Assembly (NCBI GenBank): GCA_002718715.1
Contig: PBFJ01000014.1
Coordinates: forward strand, 12,447 to 76,446
DNA: 64,000 nucleotides
Reading direction: 5' to 3'
DNA from: a bacterium
GTDB taxonomy: Bacteria > Patescibacteriota > Gracilibacteria > UBA1369 > GCA-2718715
Made by a program: the position numbers and the translations under genes. Positions 9,101 to 41,518 of this stretch are shown piece by piece (position 1 is the stretch's first letter; every line of letters begins with the position of its first letter). Below the pieces are notes generated by a model, which saw only the letters and a list, made by a program, of their open reading frames with translations, was not told the DNA's origin and ran no database searches.

Positions 9101-10859
9101 TAAATTCTAGTAGATTATTAGAACCTTTATCCGTAAATACTTTAAGTTGTGGGTGGGCTTTACAAATTTTATAAATATCTAAAGGATCAATATTTAGAAC
9201 TTTTATTTTTTCTCCTTTGACATTAATAGCAGATTCAAATTCTATTTCATTTCCGTCCTTATCCTTAAGATTATTTTTAAGTTCAATTGTTTGAATTTGA
9301 AAGTTATTTAGTTCTTTTGATAAATCTAAGATTTCTTTAAAAGTGATATCTTGATCGATAACTAATTTTTGAATTTTAATGCTTGCAAAAATATCTTTAT
9401 TGCTTACTTTTTTATAGTCGGAATACTTAACTTCATTAAATTTAATGTTTTCAAATTCATTCACTGTATAACCTGCTGCTATATCTTCTAAAAAAAGAAG
9501 ATCTTTATTGGATTTAGATTTAGATTTGGATTCTAGGATATCAAAAATATGTTGGGAAATTTTTATCGATTCTCCTGTAAGTTTGATTGAATTAACCTTT
9601 TTTAATTGATCGGATTGAATTTTATTTAATTGGTCGGTACTACAGGTCAAAGTTTCAACTCCAGGAAAGCCTGAAGGGAGATTTTCAAAACCACTTATAT
9701 TTAAATCTATTAATTTATCCTTTAGTCTACTAATAATTGAGTCCGGGAGTTTATGATGAATGTTATCAAGAATATTTAAAGCTTCTTGCTGATCTATTGT
9801 ATCCAAATCGATGGCTTTTTGAAATTCAGAATCTTTTGTAGTTTCTTGAGACCGAAATAAGGATAAAATCTTAAGTTTATCTTGGATTGAAAAATCAGTA
9901 TTTTCAAAATCTAATTTACCTTCATCTATTATAATTTCTTGAGTACCATTTTTAAATTGTGTAACTCCATTTGGAATCAAAGACTCTAGAATTTGCAAAG
10001 TGCTTGGGTTTTCGATTTCAAAATTTAGTTTTAAAACTTGCTGTACAGCCTTAGATAAAAATTTTTCAAAATTGAATAAGTTTAGTTCAATCTTAACTGG
10101 ATTATAAGTTTTGGGTGCTTTGTTCATGGATCTAGGTAAAATGTAGAATTTGTCTTCTTTTTTTGCGCAAACCACATCACCTGAATTTAAGTATTGCTTA
10201 TATAAAAATTCTGGAACTTCGGCGTAAAGTGAATGTGTTTTTAAATATTCAACATCTCCAGTAAGTAAAAAATAGTCATTAACACTAATCTCACCTTCTT
10301 TTGATTCAAGAGAAGTTGATACAAGTTTTTTTAATTTTTCGTGATTTAGTTTTTCAGCATACTGAGTTTTAATCTGTTCAAGTGTTTTTTGATCTGGTTT
10401 GGATTTTAATACTGAGCAGATTAATTGATTAAAATTTACATTAAATTTATTTGCAAAATCCTGTAATTCAGGGAGTTGAATTTCTCCATTCTTTAGTAAT
10501 ATATTTAAGAGTTCAAGTTTAAGTTCTGAAATATCTGTTAAAGATGTATCTTCGCTTGAAAGTTTGGAAATTAAAAGCTGGAGTCTTTTACGAATTTCAG
10601 CTTGCTGGGCGATTTCACTTTTAAAAACTTTTGGATCAACCTTAAAAAGTGCCTCTAACATATCTTCAGCTACGTGTAGAAAAAGTCCGGATTCTAACGT
10701 ATCTTCGGTATCAATATTGATGGCATTGTCTAAAATTTCACTTATCTTGTCCTCTTCAGGTGATTTAACTAATTTGGTGTCTAAGAGATTTAGATCTAAT
10801 TTTGGTTCTGGGTTTTCTGTATTTTCTGGCGGTAGATTGTTCTGATTTGTTATGTTCAT
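3138..10859 (-). CDS. Giant pentapeptide-repeat protein (2573 aa) with an LRR-like N-terminal half
   Basis: Uninterrupted 7,722-nt ORF. The C-terminal ~1,350 aa are dominated by A(D/N)LxG pentapeptide repeats (e.g. [43 protein letters not shown]) in about eight blocks. These blocks are separated by 8 copies of a conserved linker (LPxGYxV..DGKxLYTIVGP). The N-terminal ~1,150-1,200 aa are non-repetitive with LRR-like stretches. No signal peptide or TM was seen. Confidence 0.95.
   Translation of the reverse strand: [2573 protein letters not shown]
3233..3368 (-). repeat. Intragenic repeat A, copy 1 (partner 5033-5168)
   Basis: 136 nt aligned by eye to 5033-5168 with a single mismatch (3325 vs 5125). 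Encodes the ...[9 protein letters not shown].P / [15 protein letters not shown]... segment. Confidence 0.9.
3429..3436 (-). repeat. G8 homopolymer on the coding strand of the giant gene
   Basis: Plus strand cctccccccccag, which is tgg ggg ggg agg on the minus strand (..YWGGRRR..). One of only two 8-nt G/C runs I found in the window. Confidence 0.9.
3958..4024 (-). repeat. Intragenic repeat B, copy 1 (partner 5175-5241; diverged third copy ~5873-5935)
   Basis: Identical 67-nt string gggcctactattgtataaagttttttaccatctacttctctttcaataacttgatatccttctggaa, encoding [22 protein letters not shown]. Confidence 0.9.
4930..4981 (-). repeat. Intragenic repeat C, copy 1 (partner 6121-6172)
   Basis: Identical 52-nt string tcttgtgtttgttgatcttgagattcagttaattgaatattaaaagttccat, encoding [16 protein letters not shown]. 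Confidence 0.9.
5033..5168 (-). repeat. Intragenic repeat A, copy 2 (partner 3233-3368)
   Basis: See copy 1; 135/136 identity read directly. Confidence 0.9.
5175..5241 (-). repeat. Intragenic repeat B, copy 2
   Basis: Identical to 3958-4024. Confidence 0.9.
6121..6172 (-). repeat. Intragenic repeat C, copy 2
   Basis: Identical to 4930-4981. Confidence 0.9.
7420..7533 (-). repeat. 2 x 57-nt tandem duplication inside the giant gene
   Basis: ctagagtttataatactggcattttctactgttt.. starts at 7420 and again at 7477. Encodes [17 protein letters not shown] / [17 protein letters not shown] (LRR-like). Confidence 0.85.
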
Positions 10860-11412: not shown

Positions 11413-13794
11413 ATGGTTAAATTCAAAAGTAATTTAGAGAGAAATAAATTCAATCCACATCAGTATATTAAGTTTATAAAAGAACCTAATAATCGAAGAT
11501 TCCATGACTTAGATTGTCTGTTGTGGTCAAAACTTTTTAATACAGATAAAAGGTTAAATGAAATTGTAAAAGATCTAGTAGTAGACTACTCTTACAATGA
11601 AAACGATGAAGCAAATAGAGTATTGATTTATAGATCTGATCCAAGTGGAGAATATCAAGATATAAGAATCTTTATTAGTAAAATGATTAGCGACAAATTT
11701 AAAATTCTTGAAAGTCATAATTTAAATGAATTTCAAATTTTTGAAATTTTTAAAGCGTCTAAGTTTAAATATTTAACATCAATTTCTAAATTTATTAGAG
11801 ACCCTGAAGCGAAAAAATATGCAGAAACTCAAGCTGAAATTGCAAACATCAAGGAACCTAGTTTAAGTGGAGATGACCATCCTGTTTTAGTTAATAATGA
11901 CCCAAGTTTAAGTGGAGACGACAATCCTGCTTACAACCCAGATTTAGAACCTAGACTGACTGACAAAACACCTATTCACGAAAGAAGTACAGTAGAAACT
12001 CCTAAAAATGTAGTTGCAGATGTAGAACTAACAAGAAGATTTGTGCTTAAGGGACTATTAGCTGCCGCTGTCGCCGGCTCAACAATAAAAATTTTAGAGC
12101 CCACTGATGAACTGGTATCAGATTCTAATACTATTCCCGGTTTTGATTCAGTACCTAGCCCGGTAACTCCCCCCCCTGCTGACCATCAAATAAATCATGA
12201 GCCTTTACCTGGTCCAATTAATCCTTCAGAAGAACCTGAAGCAAATGAAAATGCTCTCGAGACTCTGAGTAGAAATCAACTAATAGAGAAGTTAAAAGAG
12301 GTAACTGAAAGTTACAAAGATGCAACTAAGAAGGCTTCTACTTTTATGCTGACCGAAAGCCCAGAAAATGAATTTTTTATAAAAGCCATAGATTTAATAA
12401 GTAAAATCAACCTAAGTGCAGAAGAATTCCTAGAATTAAAGCTAATTGAAAGTTGTAATCTTGTGAAATTTAAATCTGATAAAACTAGAATTGATAATCT
12501 TGCAGGTAAAGCGATGGTCCAAAGTGATAAGTGGTTGATAAAACTTCTTCAAAGAGCTTATGATACTAGAAGAGAAAGAGAAGAAAGAGCTAATGATTTT
12601 GGTGATGGAAACTTTTACAATGCAATTACTTCAGTATGTTCTGAATTAGAAAACGAAGTACATACTGGCACTAAAGATACAGTGGATTTATTTCCAGAAA
12701 TTAAGGATGTTCTTTTTGATCCAAACGTTATTGAATCAATCTTGATGATAGAAGGTGGTTTTAGAGCTGATGATTTAATGAATTCTACAGCAGTTTTAGC
12801 AATCACAAGGTCTTTGATAAATAGCGGTGAATTTAATCCAAATTTTGGTTCTGCAGATGTATATAGTGGTAAACATAGAATGAAAATTGCTCTTAATCAC
12901 ATTCTAACAAGTGTATTTATTCAAAAAGGAAAATTTAACAATAAACATGTTAAAAGATATTTTGATGATCTAGGTATCTTAGAATCTTTTAAAGATAGCA
13001 ATGATAACACTGAAAGAACTTGGACATCTTATCGATTAAAAAAATGTAGCCCTTTCTCTTCTTATAAGCTACGTAACAATCCAGCAAGACATGCTCCTAC
13101 AGAAACTAAAATAGCTGAAATTTTAATTGATCCACAAGCTTCAGTTAAATTAGCGTTAATGTCCTACAGAGAAAATTTACATTATTGTAGATCAGCCCTA
13201 GTAAATAACATTGATAACCTAAGAGAATTTGCAAATCCTCAAGCTGTGTCTAACTTTTGGTTAAAAATTGTAGCTTCTACTAATATTTGTGGAGGACCTA
13301 GAGTAGGAAAATTTTTAAGAGAGTTAGCTAAATACCCTGGATTTATATCAGATGATGAATTTGAAAATTTAAATTTAGAACAAGAACGACAGACTCTTCA
13401 AAAATTTGCAAAACTTATCAAGTTCTCAGAACTAAAAAGTAAAAGACAAATTAGGGCGATGTCTAGATCTGAAAGAAATGATTACTACAATTCTATAAAA
13501 GCTGAATTTCAAAATACCGAAAAATACCCGAAGAAAAAAACTGAAGAAGAACTAAATGAAATGAGTTTAGAAGATCTACAAAAACATATTGCAAATTATA
13601 ATAAAGCTTTAAAAAATTGGTATGAAACTATCTTGAATCAAAAAAGACGTAATAAGTTAATATATCATCCTGAATACTCTGAAAAGGTAGATAATATAAT
13701 GAGTACAATTAACTTAACTCCTCATATTGAAACTCAATTAGACCTAAGTAAAGCTCAAGCCTTAAGCAATCCACTGAACACTGATAATCTTTAA
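11413..13794 (+). CDS. Hypothetical membrane-anchored large protein (793 aa) with an internal Tat-like signal-anchor
   Basis: Long ORF. aa 207-228 read TRRFVLKGLLAAAVAGSTIKIL (nt ~12031-12096). Duplicated motif EPSLSGDDHP / DPSLSGDDNP at aa ~148-172. The ~560-aa C-terminal domain has no recognised family. Confidence 0.85.
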   Translation: MVKFKSNLERNKFNPHQYIKFIKEPNNRRFHDLDCLLWSKLFNTDKRLNEIVKDLVVDYSYNENDEANRVLIYRSDPSGEYQDIRIFISKMISDKFKILESHNLNEFQIFEIFKASKFKYLTSISKFIRDPEAKKYAETQAEIANIKEPSLSGDDHPVLVNNDPSLSGDDNPAYNPDLEPRLTDKTPIHERSTVETPKNVVADVELTRRFVLKGLLAAAVAGSTIKILEPTDELVSDSNTIPGFDSVPSPVTPPPADHQINHEPLPGPINPSEEPEANENALETLSRNQLIEKLKEVTESYKDATKKASTFMLTESPENEFFIKAIDLISKINLSAEEFLELKLIESCNLVKFKSDKTRIDNLAGKAMVQSDKWLIKLLQRAYDTRREREERANDFGDGNFYNAITSVCSELENEVHTGTKDTVDLFPEIKDVLFDPNVIESILMIEGGFRADDLMNSTAVLAITRSLINSGEFNPNFGSADVYSGKHRMKIALNHILTSVFIQKGKFNNKHVKRYFDDLGILESFKDSNDNTERTWTSYRLKKCSPFSSYKLRNNPARHAPTETKIAEILIDPQASVKLALMSYRENLHYCRSALVNNIDNLREFANPQAVSNFWLKIVASTNICGGPRVGKFLRELAKYPGFISDDEFENLNLEQERQTLQKFAKLIKFSELKSKRQIRAMSRSERNDYYNSIKAEFQNTEKYPKKKTEEELNEMSLEDLQKHIANYNKALKNWYETILNQKRRNKLIYHPEYSEKVDNIMSTINLTPHIETQLDLSKAQALSNPLNTDNL
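12169..12176 (+). repeat. C8 homopolymer in the coding sequence of the 793-aa gene
   Basis: act ccc ccc cct (..VTPPPA..), just downstream of the membrane anchor. Confidence 0.9.
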
Positions 13795-23404: not shown

Positions 23405-24187
23405 CTAAAGAAGGATTTCGTAGAAACCTTTGAAGCTCTCATGGATGTCTTTATGGTATGAAAAACAATAGATTTTTTGATTGTCCATAATAACTAAACT
23501 CACAAAAAAAGGTTTAGATGGATTGTTAATATAAAAAGACTCTTGGAATTGATTGTTTTTATTAATTTGGATTCCTTCATATGATTTTGTAACAGCTTGT
23601 AAAAGAGTATAAAAATAATCAGCTTTTTGAGAGTCTTCAAAAGTAATTTCTGTACCTTTGGCCATTAAACTATTTTGCTTAGTGTACTTATAATTTTTGA
23701 ATGACTGAAAATCCTCTTTTGATAAATCGATCGTGTCAAAAATCAAGGTTTGATTTTCATCTAAAGAAATTTCTAAGTCTTGAATATCGATAGAGGCAAA
23801 ATATTTTATAAGTTTAGACTCAACTTCTTGTGTTTTTGAAAGTGAAACTTCTTCTTGTGATGAGTCTTCTTGATCTGAACTTTTTAAAAAGTCTTTAAAA
23901 AATTCGGTGTTAAAACTTACCTCTTGGGATTCCTGGTTTAAATTTAAAGATTCTGAATCCTGGGAGATTTGAGAATCATTATTTTTTTGCTCTAAAGCTT
24001 GCTCTTGGAAATCTTGAACTTGAGAGCCTTGAGGCTCTGAAGTTTTAGAGTTTGAGGTTTGAAAGAAAGCTGAATTGGCTTGCAGTTGATTAGCTGGAGC
24101 CGATGGAGCTGTATTGAACTGGCTTTCTAGCAAAATTGTGATTGAAAAGAAGGCAAATATTGCCAAGAAAATTGTACTTTTGTGCAT
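23405..24187 (-). CDS. Hypothetical secreted Q/S/E-rich protein (260 aa)
   Basis: Signal-like N-terminus MHKSTIFLAIFAFFSITILLES. A low-complexity acidic region is followed by a ~130-aa globular C-terminus. Confidence 0.7.
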   Translation of the reverse strand: MHKSTIFLAIFAFFSITILLESQFNTAPSAPANQLQANSAFFQTSNSKTSEPQGSQVQDFQEQALEQKNNDSQISQDSESLNLNQESQEVSFNTEFFKDFLKSSDQEDSSQEEVSLSKTQEVESKLIKYFASIDIQDLEISLDENQTLIFDTIDLSKEDFQSFKNYKYTKQNSLMAKGTEITFEDSQKADYFYTLLQAVTKSYEGIQINKNNQFQESFYINNPSKPFFVSLVIMDNQKIYCFSYHKDIHESFKGFYEILL

Positions 24188-24270: not shown

Positions 24271-24816
24271 TTATTTCTTTTTAACTTGGTTAAAATCAAG
24301 TTCAACAGGAGTTTCTCTTCCGAACATTGAAATAAGAACAACAACCTTACCTTTATCTTGTTCAATTTTTTCAATTTCACCTTCGTAATTTTGAAAGGGA
24401 CCTTCAAGAACAGTAACTTGATCACCTTCTTCAACAGAAATTTGGAATTTTGCATCTTTTTTACCCATATGTTTTTCTACAATTTGCCATTCTTCTACTG
24501 ATACTGGTACAGGAATTGTTCCAGATCCAACGAAACCAGTTACATTTGGAGTATTTCTAACCATAAACCAAGAATCATCGTTTACATCCATTTTCACACA
24601 AACGTAACCTGGGAAAATTACCTTTTCTACTTCTTTAGGCTCCCCTTTTTTCATTACAATTTGTTTTTCTTTTGGAACAACTACATCAAAAATGTAATCT
24701 TGCATATTCATAGTGTCGATTCTTTGTAGTAAGGCTTCTCTTACTGCATCTTCGTATCCAGAATAGGTGTGAATCACATACCAATTTGTTCCTGTGTTTT
24801 GAGCTTGTCTAGACAT
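24271..24816 (-). CDS. nusG: Transcription termination/antitermination factor NusG
   Basis: NWYVIHTYSGYEDAV.. NGN domain and a C-terminal KOW (GDQVTVLEGPFQNYEGEI). Confidence 0.95.
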   Translation of the reverse strand: MSRQAQNTGTNWYVIHTYSGYEDAVREALLQRIDTMNMQDYIFDVVVPKEKQIVMKKGEPKEVEKVIFPGYVCVKMDVNDDSWFMVRNTPNVTGFVGSGTIPVPVSVEEWQIVEKHMGKKDAKFQISVEEGDQVTVLEGPFQNYEGEIEKIEQDKGKVVVLISMFGRETPVELDFNQVKKK

Positions 24817-24838
24817 TTATATAAAATTAATTTTTGAA

Positions 24839-25159
24839 TTATTCAGCAGAAGCTTCTAGAGCGTCTGTTGATACTGGGTTAATTTGAATTGCACTTGAAT
24901 CAATTTCGTTACCGTCTTGATCTGTTAACTTGATTGCAGATGTATCAATTTGGGGTTGAATTGGAGCTACAGCTTGAGATTTAGGAGAAATATCAATTAG
25001 ATAGTTGTAGAATTCTTTAAATCCACCATCTACTACTGTTAGAAAACCAGTTGCGATAACTGTAAACACAACTGTTAATACAGTTATTGAAATGGCATGA
25101 TTTTTAGTCGGCCAAGTTACTTTTTCTAATTCTTTGTAACTATCTTTAAGAAATTTCAT
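24839..25159 (-). CDS. secE: Preprotein translocase subunit SecE (with C-terminal extension)
   Basis: ELEKVTWPTKNHAISITVLTVVFTVIATGFLTVVDGGF, and a position directly upstream of nusG. Confidence 0.8.
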   Translation of the reverse strand: MKFLKDSYKELEKVTWPTKNHAISITVLTVVFTVIATGFLTVVDGGFKEFYNYLIDISPKSQAVAPIQPQIDTSAIKLTDQDGNEIDSSAIQINPVSTDALEASAE

Positions 25160-25331: not shown

Positions 25332-26255
25332 ATGAAATTTTTAAAGAAATTAGTAATTTTAGTTGGTGTTTTATTAATGGGTTTGAATCTAGCTTTTGCC
25401 GAGGAAGTTAATGAAATTCCTGCAAGACCTTTTTTACCAATTAATAACGAAGCTTTTGAGGAAGATTTTGTGAATATTTCAGATACCGAAAAGGAAGATT
25501 TCTTTGGTAAGTCTAGTATTTTACTAAAAGATGTAACTTTTATTATTCAACTATTAATTGGAGCCTTAGCTAGTATACTGACCATATCTTCTGTTTTATC
25601 TATGCTTACTGCTGGTATGGATAGTGAGGAAGGCATGACGAAATTAAAAGATACTATATTATATATAGTAATGGGTATTGGTCTTGTTTTCTTAGCTGGA
25701 GAAATTGGATCTTTATTAAGTCTGCAAAAAGGTGGGGTTATTGGATCTAAAACGGATGTGCTAAAAAGAGTTCAAATTTTTGATCAAAATGTAGAAGTGT
25801 TGATTGCTCTGATAAGATATACTTTAGCCGGACTTGCCGTTTTATTTATAACAATTTCAGGAGTTAAAATGGTAGCTGGGGCTGGAAGCGAAGAAGATGC
25901 AGCTAAAGAAAAATCTTACATTACTTATGCAGCAATGGGTTTGATATTATTTTTAATCTTCGACAATATATTAGGTAACATAATATATAGTATAGGTTCG
26001 CCTTTTACGGATCCGACTATTTCACCAAGCGGAGCTAAGATGGAGCTAATTGGATTTACTAATTTGGTAGTTTCCTTTGTAGGACCGGTTGCAATACTTT
26101 CAACTGTAATTGGTGGAGTTATGTATGCCTCAAGCGGATTTGATGAAGAACAAGCTGCGAAAGCCAAAAGAATGATTGGAGTTTCTTTAGCTGGAATTAT
26201 CTTAATCTATGCGGCTTATAGTATTATTGCAACTGTAGTTGCTGGACAATTTTAA
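25332..26255 (+). CDS. Secreted membrane protein made of three tandem VirB2/TrbC-like 'T4SS pilin' hairpin units (307 aa)
   Basis: Signal peptide MKFLKKLVILVGVLLMGLNLAFA. Then three copies of [TM - (A/S)G..(S/D)EE...K.K - TM]: LTAGMDSEEGMTKLKD, VAGAGSEEDAAKEKS, ASSGFDEEQAAKAKR. Confidence 0.75.
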   Translation: MKFLKKLVILVGVLLMGLNLAFAEEVNEIPARPFLPINNEAFEEDFVNISDTEKEDFFGKSSILLKDVTFIIQLLIGALASILTISSVLSMLTAGMDSEEGMTKLKDTILYIVMGIGLVFLAGEIGSLLSLQKGGVIGSKTDVLKRVQIFDQNVEVLIALIRYTLAGLAVLFITISGVKMVAGAGSEEDAAKEKSYITYAAMGLILFLIFDNILGNIIYSIGSPFTDPTISPSGAKMELIGFTNLVVSFVGPVAILSTVIGGVMYASSGFDEEQAAKAKRMIGVSLAGIILIYAAYSIIATVVAGQF

Positions 26256-26264
26256 CCTTTAAAT

Positions 26265-27248
26265 ATGCTTTCTTTTATAAAAAAATTTTTAATCTCACTT
26301 GGACTAATTAGTACCCTACTTTTTACAAACCTAGCTTTTGCTGAAACTCCTGATTCAAGTAACCCTCAAGGTTTCTTAAAAGATAGATTAGACTTAATTT
26401 TCGAAAAGTATTCAGCAGAAACTGGATTACTTCCTGTGTCTGATACCTCGTCGAAATTTGTTCTTGAAGAAAGAGGTTACTTTAATATAACATCTGTAGT
26501 TTATGCAATTATTGGTCTTATGAAATATGTAGCTTATGCCATAATGTCTATTACTATTGTGATTTCGATTGTTAAATTAATAACCGCTGGAAGCGAAGGG
26601 GCTGAAGAAGTTTGGGGGAATATGAAAAAGTACTTACTGCAAATTTTAATTGCAGTGGGGGTTATATTAACCGCTGAGTTTATTTTTAATAAAGTAATAA
26701 TGCCATCAGCTGTAAGTTCGATCGCAGGAGCCAAAGAGGCTGCCGGGCAAATTGGTGGAGAACTAGCTGGAATTGTTGGAATCATTCAAGGTTTAATTGT
26801 GATATTCTCAATCTGTATGCTAATTTTTGCTGGGAGTAAAATGGTTGCAAATATGGGAGATGAAGAAGCTATGAGTAAAGCTAAAAATCAAATTTTCTGG
26901 GGAGCTGGTGGTCTACTTGTAGTAATGTTGGGTGGAACTTTAGTTAATGAAATAATTTTTGTAAATGCCGAGTCGGTAGACCCAATAGCTGGATCTAGAT
27001 TGATTGTAAATATTACTAATTTTATTTCAGGAATAATTGGAACTATAAGTTTAATGGCATTCTTTTATGCCGGCGGCCAATACATTGTGGGTGGATTTAC
27101 AGAAGTCAACCAGGACTCAATTAAAAATGCGATATTTGGTGGAATAATTGGACTTGTGATAGCTCTTGGAGCATTTGCGATTGTTAACACTGTAATTGAC
27201 TTAGATAATCCAAGTGTACAGGTTTTTGATCAACAGCCAGAGTTTTAG
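26265..27248 (+). CDS. Second triple pilin-hairpin protein (327 aa), paralogue of 25332-26255
   Basis: Signal peptide ..LLFTNLAFA. Units ITAGSEGAEEVWGNMKK, VANMGDEEAMSKAKNQ and VGGFTEVNQDSIKNA, each flanked by TM helices. Ends with ..AFAIVNTVIDLD. Confidence 0.75.
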   Translation: MLSFIKKFLISLGLISTLLFTNLAFAETPDSSNPQGFLKDRLDLIFEKYSAETGLLPVSDTSSKFVLEERGYFNITSVVYAIIGLMKYVAYAIMSITIVISIVKLITAGSEGAEEVWGNMKKYLLQILIAVGVILTAEFIFNKVIMPSAVSSIAGAKEAAGQIGGELAGIVGIIQGLIVIFSICMLIFAGSKMVANMGDEEAMSKAKNQIFWGAGGLLVVMLGGTLVNEIIFVNAESVDPIAGSRLIVNITNFISGIIGTISLMAFFYAGGQYIVGGFTEVNQDSIKNAIFGGIIGLVIALGAFAIVNTVIDLDNPSVQVFDQQPEF

Positions 27249-27274: not shown

Positions 27275-27302
27275 AACTAAGTTTTAGGACTTAGTTTTTT
27301 TT
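27275..27302 (+). terminator. Rho-independent terminator after the two pilin-like genes
   Basis: aactaagt-tttagg-acttagtt followed by T8. Confidence 0.65.
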
Positions 27303-27438
27303 ATTGAAAAAACTTTGTGCAAGATTTTTCAAAACCATGTATAATATACTTGTTAAAATTGTGCATTTCTGTGGTTTTTTGTTGTCAAAAAGCCCAAAAT
27401 TTGATACAATATAGGGAATAATAATTAATTAATTTTAA

Positions 27439-30400
27439 ATGGCGAAATTTAATAGAATTAAAAATTGTTTAAAAGCTGTATTTGTAGGCTTTTTTGCGAT
27501 TTTACTACTTGGAGCTTTAGGAGGCTCAAGTTATACAACTCATGCGGATTTTTGTTCGGATGTATCTTCTGAATTCGGAGGATTTTTGGAGTGTGATGAA
27601 AAATTTTCATCTTTTTCAAGTTTCCGAGGAGGAATCAAAGCTCCAACTGGAGATGGTCTTGATCCAAGTTTAACGCAAACTGACAGTGCTCAGGATTTTG
27701 TTTTAAATATTGCAAACTTTGCTCTTGGATTTTTAGGAACGATTGCAATTTTAGTAATTGTTTATTCTGGATTCTTATATGTGACTTCTGCGGTGGATGA
27801 CTCAAATATTGAATCTGCAAAAAACAATATAAAATACTCAATCTATGGAATCTTAGTAATCTTAGGTTCATACGCCATTGTGAACACAGTTATTCAAGCT
27901 CCAGGTGGAGACAGCTCTTCTCAACTAGCCAACCAATCAAACTTAGAACAATTAGATAGATTTAATTCAGTTGCTTTTGAATTAAAAGATATTGCAAGAG
28001 ACATGACGCAAGCCTATGAAATCTATCGCCAGGATACTACTAACCTTCGAAGTTTATTAGCTACCAAACCATCGGAGTTTAATACGAGAAAAAATACTAT
28101 TACACAACTGCAAAGAATGCGTAATGCATTTATTAACCTTGAAAAACAAAGAGGTGCACTTTCTAACACAGGATTTCTAGCAAGAGATGTAGTCGAATTT
28201 GGTATAGACCCTACAATTACTACCTTAAATGGTATTATTACTGCCGAAAGAGAAAGTGAATTGGAAAATCGATATAAAGATTCACCTGCGGCAAATTTAA
28301 TAGAAAACATCGCAGGAGGTGTAGCTAACTTTTTCGCAAATCTATTTGAAAAAGACGATGAAATGCTTTTTTATGTATGTTCATTAGAACCTGAAGATAG
28401 GCCTATAAGCTATAAAGTAGAAGACTGTGAAAATGCCTTTAGACCTCAAGCTCAAGGAATTGAATTAACTATTGATTTCAATCCAAATAGTAATATCGAC
28501 CCAGATGATGATAAATCAAAAACTCTTGGTGATTTGTATCCACTAACAAGTAAACTTGTAAAAGATTACAACGATATGAAAAACGATGATAACGATAACT
28601 CTGGAAATAAAATTCATGATTTTGTCTATTATAGAAATGCTATATTGATAGCTTACACTCTTGAAGCTGGTGTTAAAGAAGATTTTGATCTACAACTTTC
28701 AAATATTAAAACTAGAATGAAAGTGATAAAAGACTTGGTTTCTTCTTACCCAGAATTAAAAAATAATCTACAAGCTTTAATTGATGATCTTCCAGATGTA
28801 GTTGATGCCTCAAACAATGCAACTGCTGATTTTAAAGATGACGATGGAGCTGGATCTGATTGGCACGTATTTGATTTGAAAACAAGTGCAAAATCAACTC
28901 TTAGTTTTTCAGGTGAATCTACTCAAAAGAAAGTGGCAGGATTTATTCAATCCTTATCAGAAATTCATACTAAAATTGAAAATGCTAAATTCACTGTACC
29001 GGTGATTGATGTAAATGTAGTTGAAGGTTCAGCACCACTTGTTGTGACTTTTGATGCAAGTGGAAGTTATGATCCAAGTAATAGATCTGTGCTAACAGAT
29101 AGTCAAGATTCGGGAGTTAATGATAATGTAAATAGATTACTGTGGGACGTAAATGGAAATGGAAAATTTGAGTCTTCGGTAGGAGTTACTAGTAATACAG
29201 AGCCTTTCTCTGCTATTAATTCTGAGCAAATTAGCTGTAGTAATTATGAGTCTGAAAGCGTTTCTTTTACATGTACATTTAAACAACCTGGATCTTTTAG
29301 AGTAGGGTTAATGCTTAAATCCCTTTCGCAAACTTCAACAGTTGATGCTGCTCCGTGGGTAGAAGCAATGAGTGATCAACCAGTTACTGGTCCTATTCTA
29401 CTTGATGTGGAATCTGAGCTGAAAAATATTCTGACTGGGATTGCTTATCAAACAATTAGAGTAAAACCTCCGACTTCGAGGATTAACCTGCTTGGATACT
29501 CCTCTACAAATAGTGCTTTTAGTGGAGATATGTTAATGAACTCTCTAAATTCAATTGATACAATTGGTGACAAGGGTTTAAGATGGCATTCAGAGAGTGG
29601 AATTTTATTATATGACAATCCTGAAATTAAATTTACCTTAGCTGAAGCTAGCTCTGGGATTACTTTTGATGCTTCATTTTCTGAACCAAGCGAAAATTTA
29701 AATAGGTTTTCATGGAGATTTTCAGATAAAGCTGGTAACTTTTCTGGAACTACTGGTACACCAGAGAATTTACCTGATAATCTAATTAATGATTCAAATA
29801 CAGAGATTATTCAAGATAATCTTTTGGGGCCGAAAATCACGCGGAATTTTGACAAGAGAGGTCGAGTGCAAGTGCAACTTGAAGTGGAAGATAATAATGG
29901 AAACTTAGATAGAAAAATGTTTGATGTTGTGGTTGGAAGCTTGGTTGCAAGATTAAGAACCAATAAAACTTCTGGATTTATTGGTGAAGAGTTTACATTA
30001 AGTGCAGAAGACTCAAGATCAGACTTTGGATCAATTACTTATAAATGGACAGTAGATGGTGAAGAAAATGCCTTGGATTGTAATGCTGATAACGATGATT
30101 TTGTATGTTCTTTCAATGAAGATGGAGATGTTTTAAGATTTAGAGCTTTGCAACCTAAAGATTTTAATATTTCGGTAGAAGTTTCTTCGGAAAGTGCTGA
30201 GGGTGTATCTGAATCGGCTTCGGTGAATTTGGATGTGAATCCAAGACCGCTTGAACCGCTAATTGTGATTGATCAAAATAGTCTGTTTGATCCGGCTAAA
30301 TTTACTTTAAATGCAAGTTTAACTTCTGATCCAGATGAGCAAATTGATAATTTTAATCCAGCTGCAAGCTATACCACTGAATATGAATGGAAAGTTTTAA

Positions 30401-33400
30401 ATGGAGTTGAAAATACTGATTATCAAGAATTAATTCCTGATAATCAAGAAGAAACAGAAATAACTTTCTTAAAACCGGGAACTTACCGAATTGGTTTGAA
30501 GGCTAGTAAAGTTTCTACTGATGAACCTAATGAGGTTTTAGTGAGTAGTACTGCGGAAAGCTCGTTGCTGGTAAGTGGTGTTATGAACTTAGTATTAGAT
30601 AATCCTGGAGCTGGAACGCTTGAAGCCAATGTAGAAACTGGATTACTTGAAAGTGGTGAAGTAGTTGTGACTGTGACTTCAAGAACTGCGAATCGAGTTA
30701 CTTTGGACTTTGGAGATGGAACTCGTGAATCATTAAAAAGACCTGCAGGTATAGCTTCAGGTCAGGATCATAGATTTGAGTTTACACATACTTATGCCTT
30801 AGCTGGTTCATATAAAATTGGGGTTTTTGCAGAAAGTGAAACTGAATCAAAAGCTTTAAGTAGTACGATTATTATTGGTGGTGGAGATACTCCTACTGCG
30901 GTAATTGCGGCTACTGTGGGTGGAAACACTTTCTTAAGTGGAGCTAATGATCTGCCTGATGTATTTAGAAAAACTAGAATTGAGTTTGATGCTTCGAAAT
31001 CTTTGAACTTAGATGGGACAAATAAAGGTCTTAAATATTCATGGGATTTAGGAGATGGTACTACTAGAACTCAAAAGAAATTTATTTATAACTATAAAGA
31101 TTATCCGCCTCTTGGGGAACCTGGATTTGATGTTACTTTAACTATTACGGATGCCAAAGATCCGGAAGTTACAAATACTGCAAATTTATTTGTACCACTT
31201 GGTAAAGCGAAACCTTCGATTGAAAATATCTCAGCTGAAAGTATTAATGGTCCAGTTACACCTTTTGATGTAAGAGTTAAAGCTGTGGGTCCTTATGATG
31301 CTGATGGTAGAATCGAAACATTTAGATACTACTACTTCCCTCTTGATGATCCAGATGAACAATTAGGAGTGAGAGTTTCTAAATCAGCAACTGAAGTACT
31401 TAGAATAGGAACTAGGGGTGATGAAGGCGAAGAAGTTGACTATGGAATTTGTATTGATGTGATTGATAACGAAGGAATTGAAAGAAAATGTGAAGTTATG
31501 TTCTTAGAAGGAACTCCGGCTGTGATTACAGCAATAAATGGAGAAAATAAATTACCTTCTTCTAAATTTAGAGCTGATAAAACTTCGGTGAAAATTGGAG
31601 AAAGCGTGACTTTCTTTGACCAATCTTTCGATCCAGATGGAACAGTAGTTGAAAGAAAATATGATATTTTAGGTGATGGAAGTTTTGCGAACGATGAAGT
31701 TTTTATTTCTAGAGCTTCTGTAATTAATTACGATACTATTTCTCCTAGAAAAGGATTTAGAGTTGTGCAACAAGTTGTGGATGACAAAGGTGGAGTTGCA
31801 GTTAGTAATCCTATCTTTATATATGTAGAATCAAATTTTGAACCACCTGAAGCTGCCTTTGTGGTTGAAGTAGATGGAATGGATATTTCTATCCAAAATA
31901 ATTCTCAAGCGGACGTAAATGCAAATATTGCGAGTTATGGATGGGATTTTGATATTAAAACAGATTCAGATGGAAATGATGTTGCAGATGACGACTTGGA
32001 CTCTACTGAAAACGAACCAAACTTTACTTATACAAGAAGTGGTCAAAAAACTATTAAACTAACTGTTACTGATAATGAAGGAAATGTGGATACAGCTACT
32101 GAAACTATTGAAATTGGTGGAAAATTAGCCCTTCCAAGAGCAGCCTTTAATTTCTCGAGAGATAAATTAAAAGTTGTTACAAAAAACAATTCTGAAGCGG
32201 ACTTTATTAACGGTGGTGAAATTGTTTCATATGAATGGGATTTTGATATTGCTACGGATTCCAAAGGTGGAAAAGATCCGGCAAACAATGTTGATTCAAC
32301 TAGTAAAAATCCAGTTATAAATTACGATAAGCCAGGAACTTATACAGTTGCATTAACTGTGGAAGATAACGAAGGTAACCGTGATAGAATTGAAAAAGCA
32401 ATCGCGGTTCAAGAAGAAAAAACTGCTAAACCCCAAGCTGCCTTTACCTATGAAGTTTTAGAGGATAAAACTGTGAAATTCACCAGCAATGCAAAAGTTG
32501 CTGAAGGATCTAATTTAACAATTCGAGAAATTTATTGGGATTTTAATATAAATCCAAATGATCCAAATGCGGATGCAGATGGAAATGGATTTGCAGACGA
32601 TGATCAAGAAGAAGTTGGAAACAACTCTCCTTCTTTCACTTACGATAGTTATGGAGTAAAAAGAGTTTCATTAACTGTTACTGATTCGGCTTTAAGTACA
32701 GATACTGTTGAAAGAATAATTGAGATTCCTTTTCCTCAGGCTGCAACTCCCACTCAACAAGCTATAAATGATTTAAGTAATAGTGGACAAGCTCCTCAAA
32801 ATGCAACAAATGTTCCAACTAATCAGCAAATATTTCCTGGAAATATTAATCCTAATGCAAGCGGACTTTCTGCTGACAATAATAGAATTTTTCAAAAAAC
32901 TCCTGAACAAATTGCAATCGAAAGAGAACTTGGAATTGGACAAGATTCACAAGATGACTCTAGTACAGTTCAAGATAGTTTAGATTCATCGCAAAGCTTA
33001 ACGGATTTTAATCCAAATAAATTTATTATTACTGAGCCTGCCTACAATGAGTTTACAGATAAATTAACTTCAACTGAAAACTCTCAAGTTGTGACTTTTA
33101 AATTTGATCATCTTCCAAGTGAAATTATTGAAATTCAAGTTGATTCTAATGTTTATGTAGATACTAGTAACGATGGGATTTTTAACAACGATGTGGATTT
33201 TAGAACTATAAGTAAACAAGATTTCACAACAACTTATACATCTACATCAAGCGATATTAGAGCCAGAGTTACTTTAATTGATAACACTGGAGTCAAATAC
33301 TATGATTCGATTGATATTGAATTTAAAGGGTTGGATTTCTCTGCATCTTTAAACTTAGATGGAGATAAAACTATGCAAACTGCTTCAGTTGCTGTTTTTC

Positions 33401-33447
33401 TAACAGGAGCTTCAGCATTATTAGTTCGTTTGATAAGACTTTTTTAG
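27439..33447 (+). CDS. Giant surface protein (2002 aa): signal peptide + one pilin-like hairpin + helical stalk + long PKD/Ig-like array + C-terminal TM anchor
   Basis: N-terminus ..LGFLGTIAILVIVYSGFLYVTSAVDDSNIESAKNNIKYSIYGILVILGSYAIVNTVI shares the AIVNTVI end motif with 26265-27248. There are >=12 PKD-type modules with WDF/WDL..GDG signatures (YSWDLGDGT, YGWDFDIKTDSDGN, YEWDFDIATDS, IYWDFNINPND). C-terminus ..ASVAVFLTGASALLVRLIRLF. Confidence 0.9.
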   Translation: MAKFNRIKNCLKAVFVGFFAILLLGALGGSSYTTHADFCSDVSSEFGGFLECDEKFSSFSSFRGGIKAPTGDGLDPSLTQTDSAQDFVLNIANFALGFLGTIAILVIVYSGFLYVTSAVDDSNIESAKNNIKYSIYGILVILGSYAIVNTVIQAPGGDSSSQLANQSNLEQLDRFNSVAFELKDIARDMTQAYEIYRQDTTNLRSLLATKPSEFNTRKNTITQLQRMRNAFINLEKQRGALSNTGFLARDVVEFGIDPTITTLNGIITAERESELENRYKDSPAANLIENIAGGVANFFANLFEKDDEMLFYVCSLEPEDRPISYKVEDCENAFRPQAQGIELTIDFNPNSNIDPDDDKSKTLGDLYPLTSKLVKDYNDMKNDDNDNSGNKIHDFVYYRNAILIAYTLEAGVKEDFDLQLSNIKTRMKVIKDLVSSYPELKNNLQALIDDLPDVVDASNNATADFKDDDGAGSDWHVFDLKTSAKSTLSFSGESTQKKVAGFIQSLSEIHTKIENAKFTVPVIDVNVVEGSAPLVVTFDASGSYDPSNRSVLTDSQDSGVNDNVNRLLWDVNGNGKFESSVGVTSNTEPFSAINSEQISCSNYESESVSFTCTFKQPGSFRVGLMLKSLSQTSTVDAAPWVEAMSDQPVTGPILLDVESELKNILTGIAYQTIRVKPPTSRINLLGYSSTNSAFSGDMLMNSLNSIDTIGDKGLRWHSESGILLYDNPEIKFTLAEASSGITFDASFSEPSENLNRFSWRFSDKAGNFSGTTGTPENLPDNLINDSNTEIIQDNLLGPKITRNFDKRGRVQVQLEVEDNNGNLDRKMFDVVVGSLVARLRTNKTSGFIGEEFTLSAEDSRSDFGSITYKWTVDGEENALDCNADNDDFVCSFNEDGDVLRFRALQPKDFNISVEVSSESAEGVSESASVNLDVNPRPLEPLIVIDQNSLFDPAKFTLNASLTSDPDEQIDNFNPAASYTTEYEWKVLNGVENTDYQELIPDNQEETEITFLKPGTYRIGLKASKVSTDEPNEVLVSSTAESSLLVSGVMNLVLDNPGAGTLEANVETGLLESGEVVVTVTSRTANRVTLDFGDGTRESLKRPAGIASGQDHRFEFTHTYALAGSYKIGVFAESETESKALSSTIIIGGGDTPTAVIAATVGGNTFLSGANDLPDVFRKTRIEFDASKSLNLDGTNKGLKYSWDLGDGTTRTQKKFIYNYKDYPPLGEPGFDVTLTITDAKDPEVTNTANLFVPLGKAKPSIENISAESINGPVTPFDVRVKAVGPYDADGRIETFRYYYFPLDDPDEQLGVRVSKSATEVLRIGTRGDEGEEVDYGICIDVIDNEGIERKCEVMFLEGTPAVITAINGENKLPSSKFRADKTSVKIGESVTFFDQSFDPDGTVVERKYDILGDGSFANDEVFISRASVINYDTISPRKGFRVVQQVVDDKGGVAVSNPIFIYVESNFEPPEAAFVVEVDGMDISIQNNSQADVNANIASYGWDFDIKTDSDGNDVADDDLDSTENEPNFTYTRSGQKTIKLTVTDNEGNVDTATETIEIGGKLALPRAAFNFSRDKLKVVTKNNSEADFINGGEIVSYEWDFDIATDSKGGKDPANNVDSTSKNPVINYDKPGTYTVALTVEDNEGNRDRIEKAIAVQEEKTAKPQAAFTYEVLEDKTVKFTSNAKVAEGSNLTIREIYWDFNINPNDPNADADGNGFADDDQEEVGNNSPSFTYDSYGVKRVSLTVTDSALSTDTVERIIEIPFPQAATPTQQAINDLSNSGQAPQNATNVPTNQQIFPGNINPNASGLSADNNRIFQKTPEQIAIERELGIGQDSQDDSSTVQDSLDSSQSLTDFNPNKFIITEPAYNEFTDKLTSTENSQVVTFKFDHLPSEIIEIQVDSNVYVDTSNDGIFNNDVDFRTISKQDFTTTYTSTSSDIRARVTLIDNTGVKYYDSIDIEFKGLDFSASLNLDGDKTMQTASVAVFLTGASALLVRLIRLF

Positions 33448-33499: not shown

Positions 33500-35641
33500 A
33501 TGAATGAGAACGAAAACTTTAATGAATTTAACGATAGTAACGAAATCCATAATGATTTTGAAGACTTTGATGAAATCTTAATTGATAACGATTTTAAGAA
33601 TGATGCTGAGCCATCAAAAGATAAAAAAAAGAAAAAATCTGCCAATAAAGGCCTGACTCTAATGATGATTTCTATCGCTGGAGTTTTGGTTTTATCTTTT
33701 GTATTAACTGGACTTCTATTTGGATTATCCTCTGGAGAAGATAATGCAATTTTAGCTTCAATTGGAATCTCAGCTTTGAATGCTGTTAACTTTTTAAAAC
33801 TAAGTCTTACTTTAGTATTCGGACTTTCAAGTTTGGTGGGTCTTTTGTTTTTCTTAATTAATTTATTTTCATATACACAAATTGATTTTTTGGAAGTAGA
33901 AGAAAGAAAACTCAAATTTAAAAATGTAATTTTTGGTGGAGTGACCTTTTTTGTATCGGTTGTACTAGCATTATTAATCGCTGTATTTTGGAATACAGGT
34001 CCTAAAGAAGAAGTTAAAATTGAATATATTGGAACTAATTTAGAATCGACTTTAAACTTAACTGCTCCAATTGAAATTGAATTTTCTGCTAAAAATTTAC
34101 CTATAGATACATCCAAAGCTCAAATTGTATCATATAATTGGAACTTTGGTGATGGTGACTCTGGAACTGGACAAACTATTTTTAAGACTTATAAAGATAA
34201 ACCAGCAACTGGAGTTTATGAAGTTAAACTTGGAGTGAGTTATTTTGAGGTAGCTGATAAATCTCAAGAAATTAAAACTCTGGAATTTACAAGATTAGTT
34301 GGAATCGACAATGTAGAGGTTACTGCAGACTTTGAAATGCAACCTAAAACAGGATTTGCTCCTTTATTAGTAGAATTTGATGCTTCAAGTTCTGTGGATC
34401 CAGATGGTTCAATTATTTTATATGAATGGGATTTTAATGGAGACTCAGTAGTTGATAGCGAAGGAGTTAAAGGTGAGTTTACTTATGAAAACGTAGGTTT
34501 ATTTAAACCAACTTTGATTGTAACTGATAACAATGGAAGAAGTTCAAAAGTATCTAAAGATTTAATTGTTAAGACGGATGAAGTTTTTACACCAAGAATT
34601 AAAGTTAGTCCTAGTGATGATGTTTTGACTCCGAATAGAAGTTATCAATTTGATGCCTCTGATTCATTAAGCCTAGAAGGTGAAATTACAAATTACAAAT
34701 GGAACTTTGGTGATGGAAAAGAAAGAGTTGGAAGAAAAGTTTCTTACAGCTTTGAAAACGAAGGTATTTATGAAATAACTTTAGAACTTTTAGATGATGC
34801 AGGAAACAAGACTCAATACTTTGAAAACTTTACTGTGTCTTCCTCCCCTTCTGGATTATTTCCAAAGATTACTTCAATCCCTGAAATTGTAGATGGAAAA
34901 ATTGAAGGTCAAATTCCTTTTAAAATACAACTTGATGCTGGAGCTTCATCGGGAGCTAAAATTGTTGAGTATTCTTGGGATTTTGAAAACGATTCAGTTT
35001 TGGATGCTTCTGGTCAATTAGTTGAGCATGTTTATACTGTTCCAGGTAAATATGATTTGAAACTTACTATAACTTCAGCAGCTGGAAAAACAGCAAGTAA
35101 AATTGTAGAAGTTGAAGTATTTGATTCAGATTTAAGACCTGAAGTAAGTGCTAACCCTAGCCTTGGAAATGTACCTTTAGAAGTAACTTTTGATGCATCT
35201 GCAACTAAAGCACCTGTAGGAGCTAATATTGTACAGTTTAGATGGAATTTTGATGATGGAACTCCAGTTTTAAGAGCTGGTTCGACTGTAACTCACCTCT
35301 TTACAAGAACTGGAGAATTTAATGTTGAAGTTACAGCTGTAACTGATGAGAATGAAATAGCTTCGACTAACATTTTAGTATTTGTAAATGAAATCCCTTT
35401 GAAAGCTTGTTATAAATCTTCAAGAATTGAAGGTCCTGCGCCTTTGACTGTATTATTTAATCCTAATTGTACTACTGGAAATGTAGCTAGATTTGAATGG
35501 GATTTTGCAGGTCTGGGAGACTCTGAAGATAGAAAGCCAAGCTTTACATTTGAAGAAGCTGGAGAATTTGAAGTAATTTTAAAAGCTTTTGATCCAGATA
35601 ATAACCTTTCAACTTTCAAAGAAACTATTAAAGTAAAATAA
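33500..35641 (+). CDS. Membrane protein (713 aa) with N-terminal TM hairpin(s) and ~7 PKD domains
   Basis: Acidic N-terminus, then TM segments around ..GLLFGLSSGEDNAILASIGISAL.. Repeated PKD signatures follow: YNWNFGDGDSG, YEWDFNGDS, YKWNFGDGKE, YSWDFENDS, FRWNFDDGT, FEWDFAGLG. Confidence 0.9.
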   Translation: MNENENFNEFNDSNEIHNDFEDFDEILIDNDFKNDAEPSKDKKKKKSANKGLTLMMISIAGVLVLSFVLTGLLFGLSSGEDNAILASIGISALNAVNFLKLSLTLVFGLSSLVGLLFFLINLFSYTQIDFLEVEERKLKFKNVIFGGVTFFVSVVLALLIAVFWNTGPKEEVKIEYIGTNLESTLNLTAPIEIEFSAKNLPIDTSKAQIVSYNWNFGDGDSGTGQTIFKTYKDKPATGVYEVKLGVSYFEVADKSQEIKTLEFTRLVGIDNVEVTADFEMQPKTGFAPLLVEFDASSSVDPDGSIILYEWDFNGDSVVDSEGVKGEFTYENVGLFKPTLIVTDNNGRSSKVSKDLIVKTDEVFTPRIKVSPSDDVLTPNRSYQFDASDSLSLEGEITNYKWNFGDGKERVGRKVSYSFENEGIYEITLELLDDAGNKTQYFENFTVSSSPSGLFPKITSIPEIVDGKIEGQIPFKIQLDAGASSGAKIVEYSWDFENDSVLDASGQLVEHVYTVPGKYDLKLTITSAAGKTASKIVEVEVFDSDLRPEVSANPSLGNVPLEVTFDASATKAPVGANIVQFRWNFDDGTPVLRAGSTVTHLFTRTGEFNVEVTAVTDENEIASTNILVFVNEIPLKACYKSSRIEGPAPLTVLFNPNCTTGNVARFEWDFAGLGDSEDRKPSFTFEEAGEFEVILKAFDPDNNLSTFKETIKVK

Positions 35642-41011: not shown

Positions 41012-41518
41012 TTACCACCAAACATCTTTAATTTTTAGCTTATAGCTAATATAGTTTGTAGCAAAATGTAAAAAAGGAGTTATTATTAAAATCAATAATG
41101 TTTCAAAAAGTGGCAGTTTATAAAATGGTAACGTACAAATAATTGCTCCTAGTATTAAATCAATTTGGTCGAATGGAAACCAGGGTTGTCCAGACTGAAT
41201 CCCCTTTTTTCTTTTAAAATATGATTTTAATGCATCTCCTCCAAGGGCACCTAAAGTCATTAGAAATGATAAGATAAATATATTTTCCTGGCTATAATTA
41301 ATTAAATTAAAGTTTTCTATCAAATAGATTTTTTGAAGATAGACTGTAAGTAAAGCAGCTAAGTATCCAAAAATTAGGCCACGATAAGTTTTGTTTTTTC
41401 CTAGTTTTCTTTCGTTTAGAGATTTATCAAATGGAAGATTAAGCTTCTTTGCTAGTACTGGAGCCATATTTGCAATGTATGCTGGAAGAAAAAAATAAAA
41501 TGTTTGAAGTAATAACAT
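41012..41518 (-). CDS. carS: CDP-archaeol synthase-like (CarS / DUF46 family) integral membrane protein
   Basis: 168 aa. FFLPAYIANMAPVL, GKNKTYRGLIFG, LGALGGDALKSYFKRKKGI, FPFDQID and C-terminal ITPFLHFATNYISYKLKIKDVWW line up with the archaeal CarS pattern as I remember it. Confidence 0.7.
   Translation of the reverse strand: MLLLQTFYFFLPAYIANMAPVLAKKLNLPFDKSLNERKLGKNKTYRGLIFGYLAALLTVYLQKIYLIENFNLINYSQENIFILSFLMTLGALGGDALKSYFKRKKGIQSGQPWFPFDQIDLILGAIICTLPFYKLPLFETLLILIITPFLHFATNYISYKLKIKDVWW

Follow-up and report, generated by a model that had tools for sequence, protein, structure and literature searches.

Why would a bacterium join three pilin hairpins end to end in a single polypeptide, and do so in two adjacent genes? 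This question is raised by open reading frames (ORFs) A and B on contig PBFJ01000014.1 (assembly GCA_002718715.1; Patescibacteriota, Gracilibacteria). We analyzed a 64,000-nucleotide stretch of this contig, hereafter the window, which is bacterial chromosome with a guanine-plus-cytosine (GC) content of about 31%. A first-pass annotation, made from the letters alone, had described two tandem genes that each encode a triple fusion of VirB2/TrbC-like pilin hairpins. ORF A (25332..26255, + strand, 307 aa) and ORF B (26265..27248, + strand, 327 aa) occupy exactly the positions it assigned, and all six loops that it quoted are present in their translations. The two proteins are paralogous, Sec-exported membrane proteins, in each of which three hairpins of the Pfam family PF18895 (T4SS_pilin, after the type IV secretion system, T4SS) are covalently joined; we refer to their orthologues as A-type and B-type.

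Three joined pilin hairpins in each of two proteins

Both proteins begin with a cleavable-looking signal peptide, as the first-pass annotation had proposed. In A it spans residues 1-23 and ends in NLAFA ahead of EE, and in B it spans residues 1-26 and ends in NLAFA ahead of ET. The AFA end is thus common to both, and its final Ala is at least 90% conserved in the family. A hydropathy scan places six transmembrane (TM) helices after this N-terminal signal-like helix in each protein. When run on the 64-kb window, a hidden Markov model (HMM) of the repeat unit finds exactly seven hairpins, three in A, three in B, and one in the downstream ORF C. The unit HMM domains are 67-75 residues long, a size range that matches mature VirB2, TrbC, and TraA pilins. 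In A, unit 1 (25512..25712, +; residues 61-127) carries the loop AGMDSEEGMTKLK and is recognized both by the unit HMM and, as an isolated unit, by PF18895; unit 2 (25776..25991, +; residues 149-220; loop AGAGSEEDAAKEK) is the strongest Pfam stretch of the protein; and unit 3 (26034..26249, +; residues 235-306), with the motif GFTNLVVSFVGP and the loop SGFDEEQAAKAKR, is orthologous to unit 3 of B. The corresponding units of B are unit 1 (26484..26708, +; residues 74-148), found by the unit HMM, unit 2 (26748..26966, +; residues 162-234), found by Pfam and the unit HMM, and unit 3 (26991..27200, +; residues 243-312), which contains the motif ITNFISG … GAFAIVNTVI.

AlphaFold2 (AF2) models of the full chains agree with the hydropathy scan and Pfam on three TM-loop-TM units per protein, the arrangement originally read from the sequence. 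The model of A consists of three long helical hairpins (helices 57-94/99-129, 140-182/187-218, and 232-267/272-303; predicted local distance difference test score, pLDDT, 72.6; predicted template modeling score, pTM, 0.52), as does that of B (helices 73-107/113-144, 153-195/200-231, and 240-276/280-310; pLDDT 71.9, pTM 0.50). Helix 1 of these hairpins extends over 35-43 residues, far more than is needed to cross a bilayer, and helix 2 over 31-32.

Both genes are real and under purifying selection. Against orthologues of 91-95% identity in the close relative L003, the ratio of nonsynonymous to synonymous substitution rates is 0.049 (A) and 0.113 (B); nusG gives 0.015. A and B share a reading frame and are only 9 nt apart, and we considered whether they are read through as one protein, perhaps under an alternative genetic code. 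This was rejected. A stops at TAA, B starts with a signal peptide of its own, the topology of B would be inverted in a fusion, and the spacing between the genes varies among species.

Are these hairpins pilins? With a curated gathering score of 26.6 bits, PF18895 matches three stretches in A (E = 8.6e-16, 58.2 bits), three in B (E = 3e-10, 40.5 bits), and one hairpin in C (residues 81-149, 29.4 bits). At E ≤ 1 it also matches every one of 33 isolated units, which sample all six A/B positions and the C hairpin and include six from the window (best match 4e-12; A unit 1 of the window alone, 27.7 bits). Aligned with one another, the 33 units fill about 74 columns, have few gaps, and follow a common pattern, G..A.L.I..G....T.G..EE...K.K..I.YA.IGL, in which the polar loop motif EE…K.K is in register in every unit, bearing out the earlier claim that the loops are homologous. 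Each unit is a PF18895 domain at or near the curated threshold, and the repeat and pilin signal of A and B is far beyond chance. A and B therefore belong to PF18895 by HMM and by topology and depart from its usual one-hairpin architecture.

These results bear on the possibility that A and B are generic polytopic membrane proteins whose likeness to pilins comes from hydrophobic composition. Hydrophobic helices can yield spurious HMM matches, and no significant match to any solved pilin was obtained. However, the whole set of isolated units matches PF18895, 23 of them also match TrbC, the EE…K.K loop keeps its register throughout, and homologues lie within arrays of single-hairpin pilin genes. 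In addition, the NCBIfam Mbov_0395 model for pilin-like conjugal transfer proteins matches A, B, and C, albeit below its threshold. We regard this explanation, which had been named at the outset as the one that would undo the pilin assignment, as effectively refuted.

The assignment is narrower for the TrbC/VirB2 family proper, PF04956, which has a gathering score of 27.9 bits. Its match to full-length A is below threshold (14.9 bits, E = 0.031), and the Pfam scan gave no match to full-length B. The 23 isolated units that it matches at E ≤ 1 reach 3.6e-5 at best; one of these matches, at 18.2 bits, is again below threshold, and several homologues of A and B carry precomputed PF04956 matches. 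Membership in this family is not demonstrable, so that, of the original VirB2/TrbC-like label, the pilin part holds through PF18895, whereas direct kinship with TrbC/VirB2 is left with sub-threshold matches and a nonsignificant profile alignment to VirB2. The resemblance to VirB2, TrbC, and TraA lies in a hairpin of two long helices, about 70 residues after removal of the leader, with a polar or positive loop, and in the recurrent sub-threshold PF04956 matches. The canonical pilins differ in that they are single units, some of them cyclized; A and B have no VirB4, VirB6, or other T4SS gene among the main ORFs of the window.

A conserved cassette and its multi-unit relatives

How widely is this architecture kept? 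A scan covering one genome per species of the Genome Taxonomy Database (GTDB) recovered 31 loci, labeled mostly Peregrinibacteria, Peribacteria, or (GTDB-style) Gracilibacteria. The locus of the metagenome-assembled genome SI074_bin149 has 91-99% protein identity to the window. In all 31 loci, wherever the sequence reaches, rplA, rplK, nusG, and secE run leftward and A, B, C, and D run rightward from the same divergent junction; in the window, nusG and secE (24271..25159, - strand) form this conserved flank, which we take as context and not as a functional part. Wherever the sequence is complete, the hairpin count is three in A, three in B, and one in C (3+3+1). A-B-C-D is a vertically inherited chromosomal core cassette of the Peregrinibacteria/Peribacteria lineage, whose members are uncultured and ultra-small, and not a mobile T4SS.

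ORF C (27439..33447, +, 2002 aa) combines an N-terminal signal or anchor, one pilin hairpin (27688..27897, +; residues 84-153), which is the seventh and last in the window, about 1,850 aa of PKD-repeat ectodomain, and, at the C-terminus, a TM helix and basic tail (about 33379-33444, +). Among the C orthologues at L001-L033, most end in a TM helix and a K/R-rich tail and have no LPXTG-like motif; those of L018, L020, and L024 lack the C-terminal anchor. To judge from these features, both ends of the giant PKD protein would be anchored in most cases. The fourth conserved gene, ORF D (33500..35641, +, 713 aa), encodes an acidic, lysine-rich N-terminus, three TM helices, and six PKD domains. The Pam pilus was considered as an identity for C and rejected: the match of the PamR model (NF058578) falls in the PKD-rich ectodomain and scores 19.8 bits, compared with a cutoff of 300 bits, and the Pam pilus in the candidate phyla radiation (CPR) consists of donor-strand pilins of immunoglobulin fold, which are unrelated to A, B, and C. 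A good analogy for C is offered by modular type IV pilins. In the dual-pilin PilJ of Clostridioides difficile and in the Streptococcus sanguinis pilins with grafted domains, for example, one chain combines a pilin module with additional modules, either pilin or adhesive. These belong, however, to the type IV pilus and not to the T4SS, with an unrelated pilin fold and other assembly machinery.

The genes appear to be divided into two transcription units. Downstream of B lies a terminator-like element (27275..27302, +), read from the sequence and folded as a 9-bp hairpin, AACTAAGTT/GACTTAGTT, followed by a T-run; its stem is AT-rich, and it was not listed by a consensus terminator scan. Upstream of C is a promoter-like site (27382..27410, +), TTGTCA-17-TACAAT with a TG upstream, which is a consensus match only. 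Together, these elements suggest that A-B is transcribed separately from C-D, and they would fit A and B as major subunits and C as a minor one.

The cassette can be set against the single-hairpin T4SS_pilin proteins of CPR bacteria, which share with A and B the Pfam family of each unit, the design of a signal peptide followed by helix, polar loop, and helix, and the phylum-level group (Patescibacteria). CPR pilin genes often occur in arrays of 2-11 (PMC12102498, PMC10633639), and multi-unit relatives of A and B lie in such arrays. Whereas the CPR pilins usually consist of one hairpin in about 100-150 aa, A and B have three units per chain with position-specific divergence. The CPR genes are often, though not always, near virB4, whereas A-B is a fixed core pair, not a variable array, beside secE-nusG, with no T4SS gene among the main ORFs of the window. 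Unlike the single-hairpin pilins, A-B is also coupled to a giant hairpin-PKD protein (C) and a TM-PKD protein (D).

For A, word-based homology searches recovered 15 relatives, and for B 62; nearly all are 300-400 aa long and carry PF18895, and those with a name are listed as "hypothetical protein" or "pilin". In an alignment of 34 sequences, collinearity extends through the three hairpins and the two linkers even where identity falls to about 20%. The search was extended with a full-length profile against 1.84 billion cluster representatives, which matched 54,308 at E ≤ 1e-3, 5,098 at E ≤ 1e-10, and 467 at E ≤ 1e-30. Unit counts were taken from the best 150 profile matches. Three units were by far the most frequent (107 proteins), followed by four (18 proteins) and two (12 short proteins, probably fragments); five units were counted in 2 proteins, six in 6, seven in 2, and eight in 1, and single proteins had at least 10 and at least 15 units. 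The earlier statement that concatenated pilins are unusual is accurate for their small share of the superfamily (467 versus 54,308 clusters), but the architecture is fixed in all 31 loci of the cassette, and forms of 4 to at least 15 units exist elsewhere.

Several of these relatives retain an array context. The six-unit CPR proteins P0067 and P0122 sit within arrays of single-hairpin PF18895 genes, and single-unit genes of 118-150 aa are present in L036 and L037. In L035, which has different neighbor genes, pilin, pilin+PKD, and PKD genes come after the gene for an 8-unit protein. Arrays that mix single- and multi-hairpin pilin genes are found on CPR-like contigs at L035 9925-16481 (8+1+1 with PKD partners), L036 6571-10913 (2+1+1+6+1+1+1), L037 194-3941 (1+2+1+6+1), and L038 177-3482 (4+4), a pattern that suggests repeated in-frame fusion within pilin arrays. 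The most extreme case, a protein of 1,775 aa, has at least 14-15 TrbC/T4SS_pilin hairpins in a row (L034 10001-15328; contig CDLKIH010000037.1, GCA_975902405.1). Its contig is archaeal-looking, with ribosomal protein L39e directly upstream and Cas4 nearby, which would mean that extreme pilin concatenation is not confined to CPR bacteria.

How did the three units of A and B come about? When HMMs built for one unit class are run on the other classes, the median scores are 14-58 bits, and by this measure all six A/B units are homologous. Units 1 and 2 are about equally alike each other in both paralogues, as judged by position-specific HMMs. A unit 3 and B unit 3 are mutual best matches at 54-55 bits, whereas A unit 3 scores 14-25 bits against A units 1 and 2; the C hairpin is of the unit-3 type. 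Because A unit 3 is closest to B unit 3, at least the split of unit 3 from units 1 and 2 is placed, on these scores, before the A/B duplication. The most likely origin of the fusions is that neighboring pilin genes of a tandem array merged in frame. This origin, and with it the pilin context, is supported by P0067 and P0122 within their single-hairpin arrays and by the 8-unit locus L035. Once fused, three units that have ceased to be equivalent would be locked into one order and one stoichiometry.

Functionally, joined hairpins are best compared, by analogy and not by homology, with the multiplied c/K subunits of rotary ATPases. These hairpin subunits are duplicated in V-type enzymes, triplicated in Methanocaldococcus jannaschii, and multiplied 13-fold in Methanopyrus kandleri; as in A and B, hairpins of a homo-oligomer are joined in one chain, with variable copy number and later positional divergence. 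An actual c-subunit identity of A and B was rejected, as Pfam gave no ATP-synt_C match at E ≤ 1. A and B also differ from c/K subunits in having no mid-helix membrane carboxylate, their conserved acidic residue lying at the outer end of helix 2, and no ATPase genes are nearby.

Cleavage, assembly, and rival readings

Are the chains cut into single pilins or kept whole? The first-pass annotation had offered both options, polyproteins cleaved into monomers or pseudo-trimeric building blocks. In the former case, the extracellular linkers of the chains would be cleaved, with signal peptidase acting after helix 2 of each unit as one possibility, and three single-hairpin pilins would be freed in a 1:1:1 ratio and assemble like ordinary VirB2-type pilins. 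Such a cut would be topologically possible, since hydropathy and AF2 point to a helix 2 that runs from inside to outside like a signal peptide. The unit size equals that of a mature pilin, and the canonical pilins VirB2, TrbC, and TraA do mature by proteolysis. The linkers, however, are gap-free and nearly as conserved as the hairpins: their columns have an occupancy of about 100% and 2.1-2.6 bits, compared with 2.5-3.2 bits in the hairpins and 1.8-2.4 bits in the signal peptide and N-terminal regions. Their conserved motifs, L..GGFL.DPN.IL…LF.Q in the A-type and F[PV].G..L[DN] in the B-type, do not resemble cleavage sites, and a conserved small-x-small peptidase site was looked for in the alignment columns of the A and B linkers and not found. 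In the AF2 models of both proteins, helix 1 of units 2 and 3 extends into the linker region. The collinear architecture is kept even at about 20% identity, and in recently fused 6-unit proteins the linkers are short, at about 15-30 residues. A cleaved polyprotein is accordingly improbable in our estimation. Gap-free, conserved linkers without a conserved peptidase motif favor, without proving, intact pseudo-trimers with nonequivalent positions, and of the two original options it is the pseudo-trimeric building block that the linkers support.

What might such chains build? We prefer, with moderate confidence, a pilus-like extruded polymer of A/B pseudo-trimers with C bearing an adhesin. From the predicted topology, each unit would start and end outside the cell, leaving both linkers extracellular, and the G-x-x-E-E-x3-K-x-K loops would point into the cytoplasm or, in an assembled tube, into its lumen. 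Uncleaved A and B would be the pseudo-trimeric major subunits, with hairpins packed side by side in the manner of VirB2 into a membrane-rooted, pilus-like hairpin polymer. C could join this polymer through its own hairpin and display its PKD adhesin toward a partner or host cell, and D could support assembly at the membrane. Extrusion is preferred because the helices are very long and because relatives vary in unit number and lie within pilin arrays. Assembly would rely on T4SS components encoded elsewhere in the genome. In a published survey, 813 of 1,948 pilin-bearing CPR assemblies had no pilin gene near virB4, and T4SS genes are dispersed in the class Gracilibacteria (PMC12102498); these figures are consistent with a distant T4SS serving A and B.

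Several points weigh against extrusion. No VirB4, VirB6, VirD4, or other T4SS component or ATPase was found by Pfam among the main ORFs of the window, and the stored annotation of the L001 and L035 flanks contains none either. No PF18895 protein is known from experiment to form a pilus. Alignment of the unit profile by hhalign with mature Agrobacterium tumefaciens VirB2, a sequence checked against annotated virB2 by tblastn, was not significant (probability 0.3%). Searches of PDB sequences with the full-length and unit profiles returned no meaningful match, and a Foldseek search of the PDB with the AF2 model of A returned only helical repeats of the 14-3-3 type (E ≥ 0.25, TM-score about 0.2). 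The AF2 models themselves are moderately confident (pTM 0.50-0.52) and do not define the packing between hairpins. We infer the absence of cleavage, on which intact subunits depend, from conservation. The only experimental fact on PF18895 concerns Southlakia epibionticum, where the pilin array lies within a T4SS cluster and is essential (PMC10633639). Finally, the invariant 3+3+1 count points to a complex of fixed stoichiometry and not to an open polymer, and the C-terminal TM helix and basic tail of most C orthologues would, as a tether at two ends, fit a membrane complex at least equally well.

The last two points lead to a serious though less probable alternative, in which the hairpins of A, B, and C never leave the membrane. 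Seven hairpins (14 helices) and the three TM helices of D would form a fixed array or ring that serves as a platform, anchor, or channel holding the PKD surface proteins C and D, and the likeness to pilins would reflect ancestry only. Besides the constant count across the 31 loci and the second anchor of C with its cytoplasmic basic tail, this alternative gains from D being itself a 3-TM protein, from the missing assembly ATPase in the window's main ORFs and the annotated L001/L035 flanks, and from the position of the cassette in a core housekeeping neighborhood beside secE instead of a T4SS or mobile locus. On the other hand, multi-unit proteins with 1, 2, 4, 6, 8, and at least 15 units occur within ordinary pilin arrays elsewhere, and this variable copy number argues for interchangeable polymer subunits. 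Helix 1 of the hairpins is over-long for a bilayer, as in the pilus-forming VirB2 and TraA, and the C orthologues of L018, L020, and L024 do without a C-terminal anchor. In a more specific and less likely form, the 3+3+1 set would be a T4SS-independent envelope ring or conduit of fixed stoichiometry, a repurposed, c-ring-like pilin fold coupled to a giant PKD adhesin as a contact organelle that defines the Peregrinibacteria lineage. If this were so, concatenation of T4SS pilins, from 3 to at least 15 units and also on an archaeal-looking contig, would represent a general and unrecognized route from pilin arrays to envelope machines.

The proteins are already in public databases, but the architecture does not seem to have been described before. 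In the open literature, we found the family treated only as single "VirB2-like" pilins and gene arrays, and found neither covalent multi-hairpin forms nor the A-B-C-D cassette; by these literature searches, the triple-unit version is not the common and previously reported form that would have refuted the original observation. Few proteins of Patescibacteria are as abundant or as lineage-enriched as the VirB2-like pilins, which are essential in the one species tested genetically. A class-wide and strongly constrained pair of covalent pilin trimers is a well-defined system in this setting, with a fixed unit order, fixed linker lengths, and a hairpin-tagged adhesin partner. Its linkers would limit the possible subunit neighbors in any assembly, and the 3+3+1 count predicts a stoichiometry. 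The relatives also indicate that fusion within tandem pilin arrays can yield chains with 3 to at least 15 units, each of which current T4SS surveys score as one "VirB2".

Other features of the window

The secE-nusG-rplKA cluster that flanks the cassette has an unusual insertion of its own. Between rplK and nusG, a gene at 23405-24187 (-) encodes a 260-aa secreted, Q/S/E-rich low-complexity protein without a Pfam match. In several relatives the corresponding slot is filled by weakly similar sequence; in L001 an unannotated gene of 207 aa is present at this position.

Elsewhere in the window, three long ORFs of 1,467 aa (53515-57918, -), 793 aa (11413-13794, +), and 723 aa (424-2595, +) have no Pfam match at E ≤ 0.01. 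Nearly the whole of a 2,573-aa protein (3138-10859, -) is built of pentapeptide repeats (Pfam E = 9.5e-205, at least 20 stretches). A 168-aa protein (41012-41518, -) gives a full-length match to CarS-like/CDP-archaeol synthase (PF01864, E = 2.4e-35) in an otherwise bacterial genome.

The stop codons of the window are also uneven. The 45 non-overlapping ORFs of at least 90 aa end in TAA (37) or TAG (8) and never in TGA, and no in-frame TGA occurs in real window genes, although the triplet is present 1,518 times on the + strand. TGA stops are likewise absent in the close relative L003 and in the low-GC loci L004, L008, L013, and L019, whereas GC-richer relatives use TGA freely. From this distribution, UGA may be avoided or unassigned in the low-GC branch; in the GTDB, this branch and the Gracilibacteria that use code 25 (UGA = Gly) share a class.

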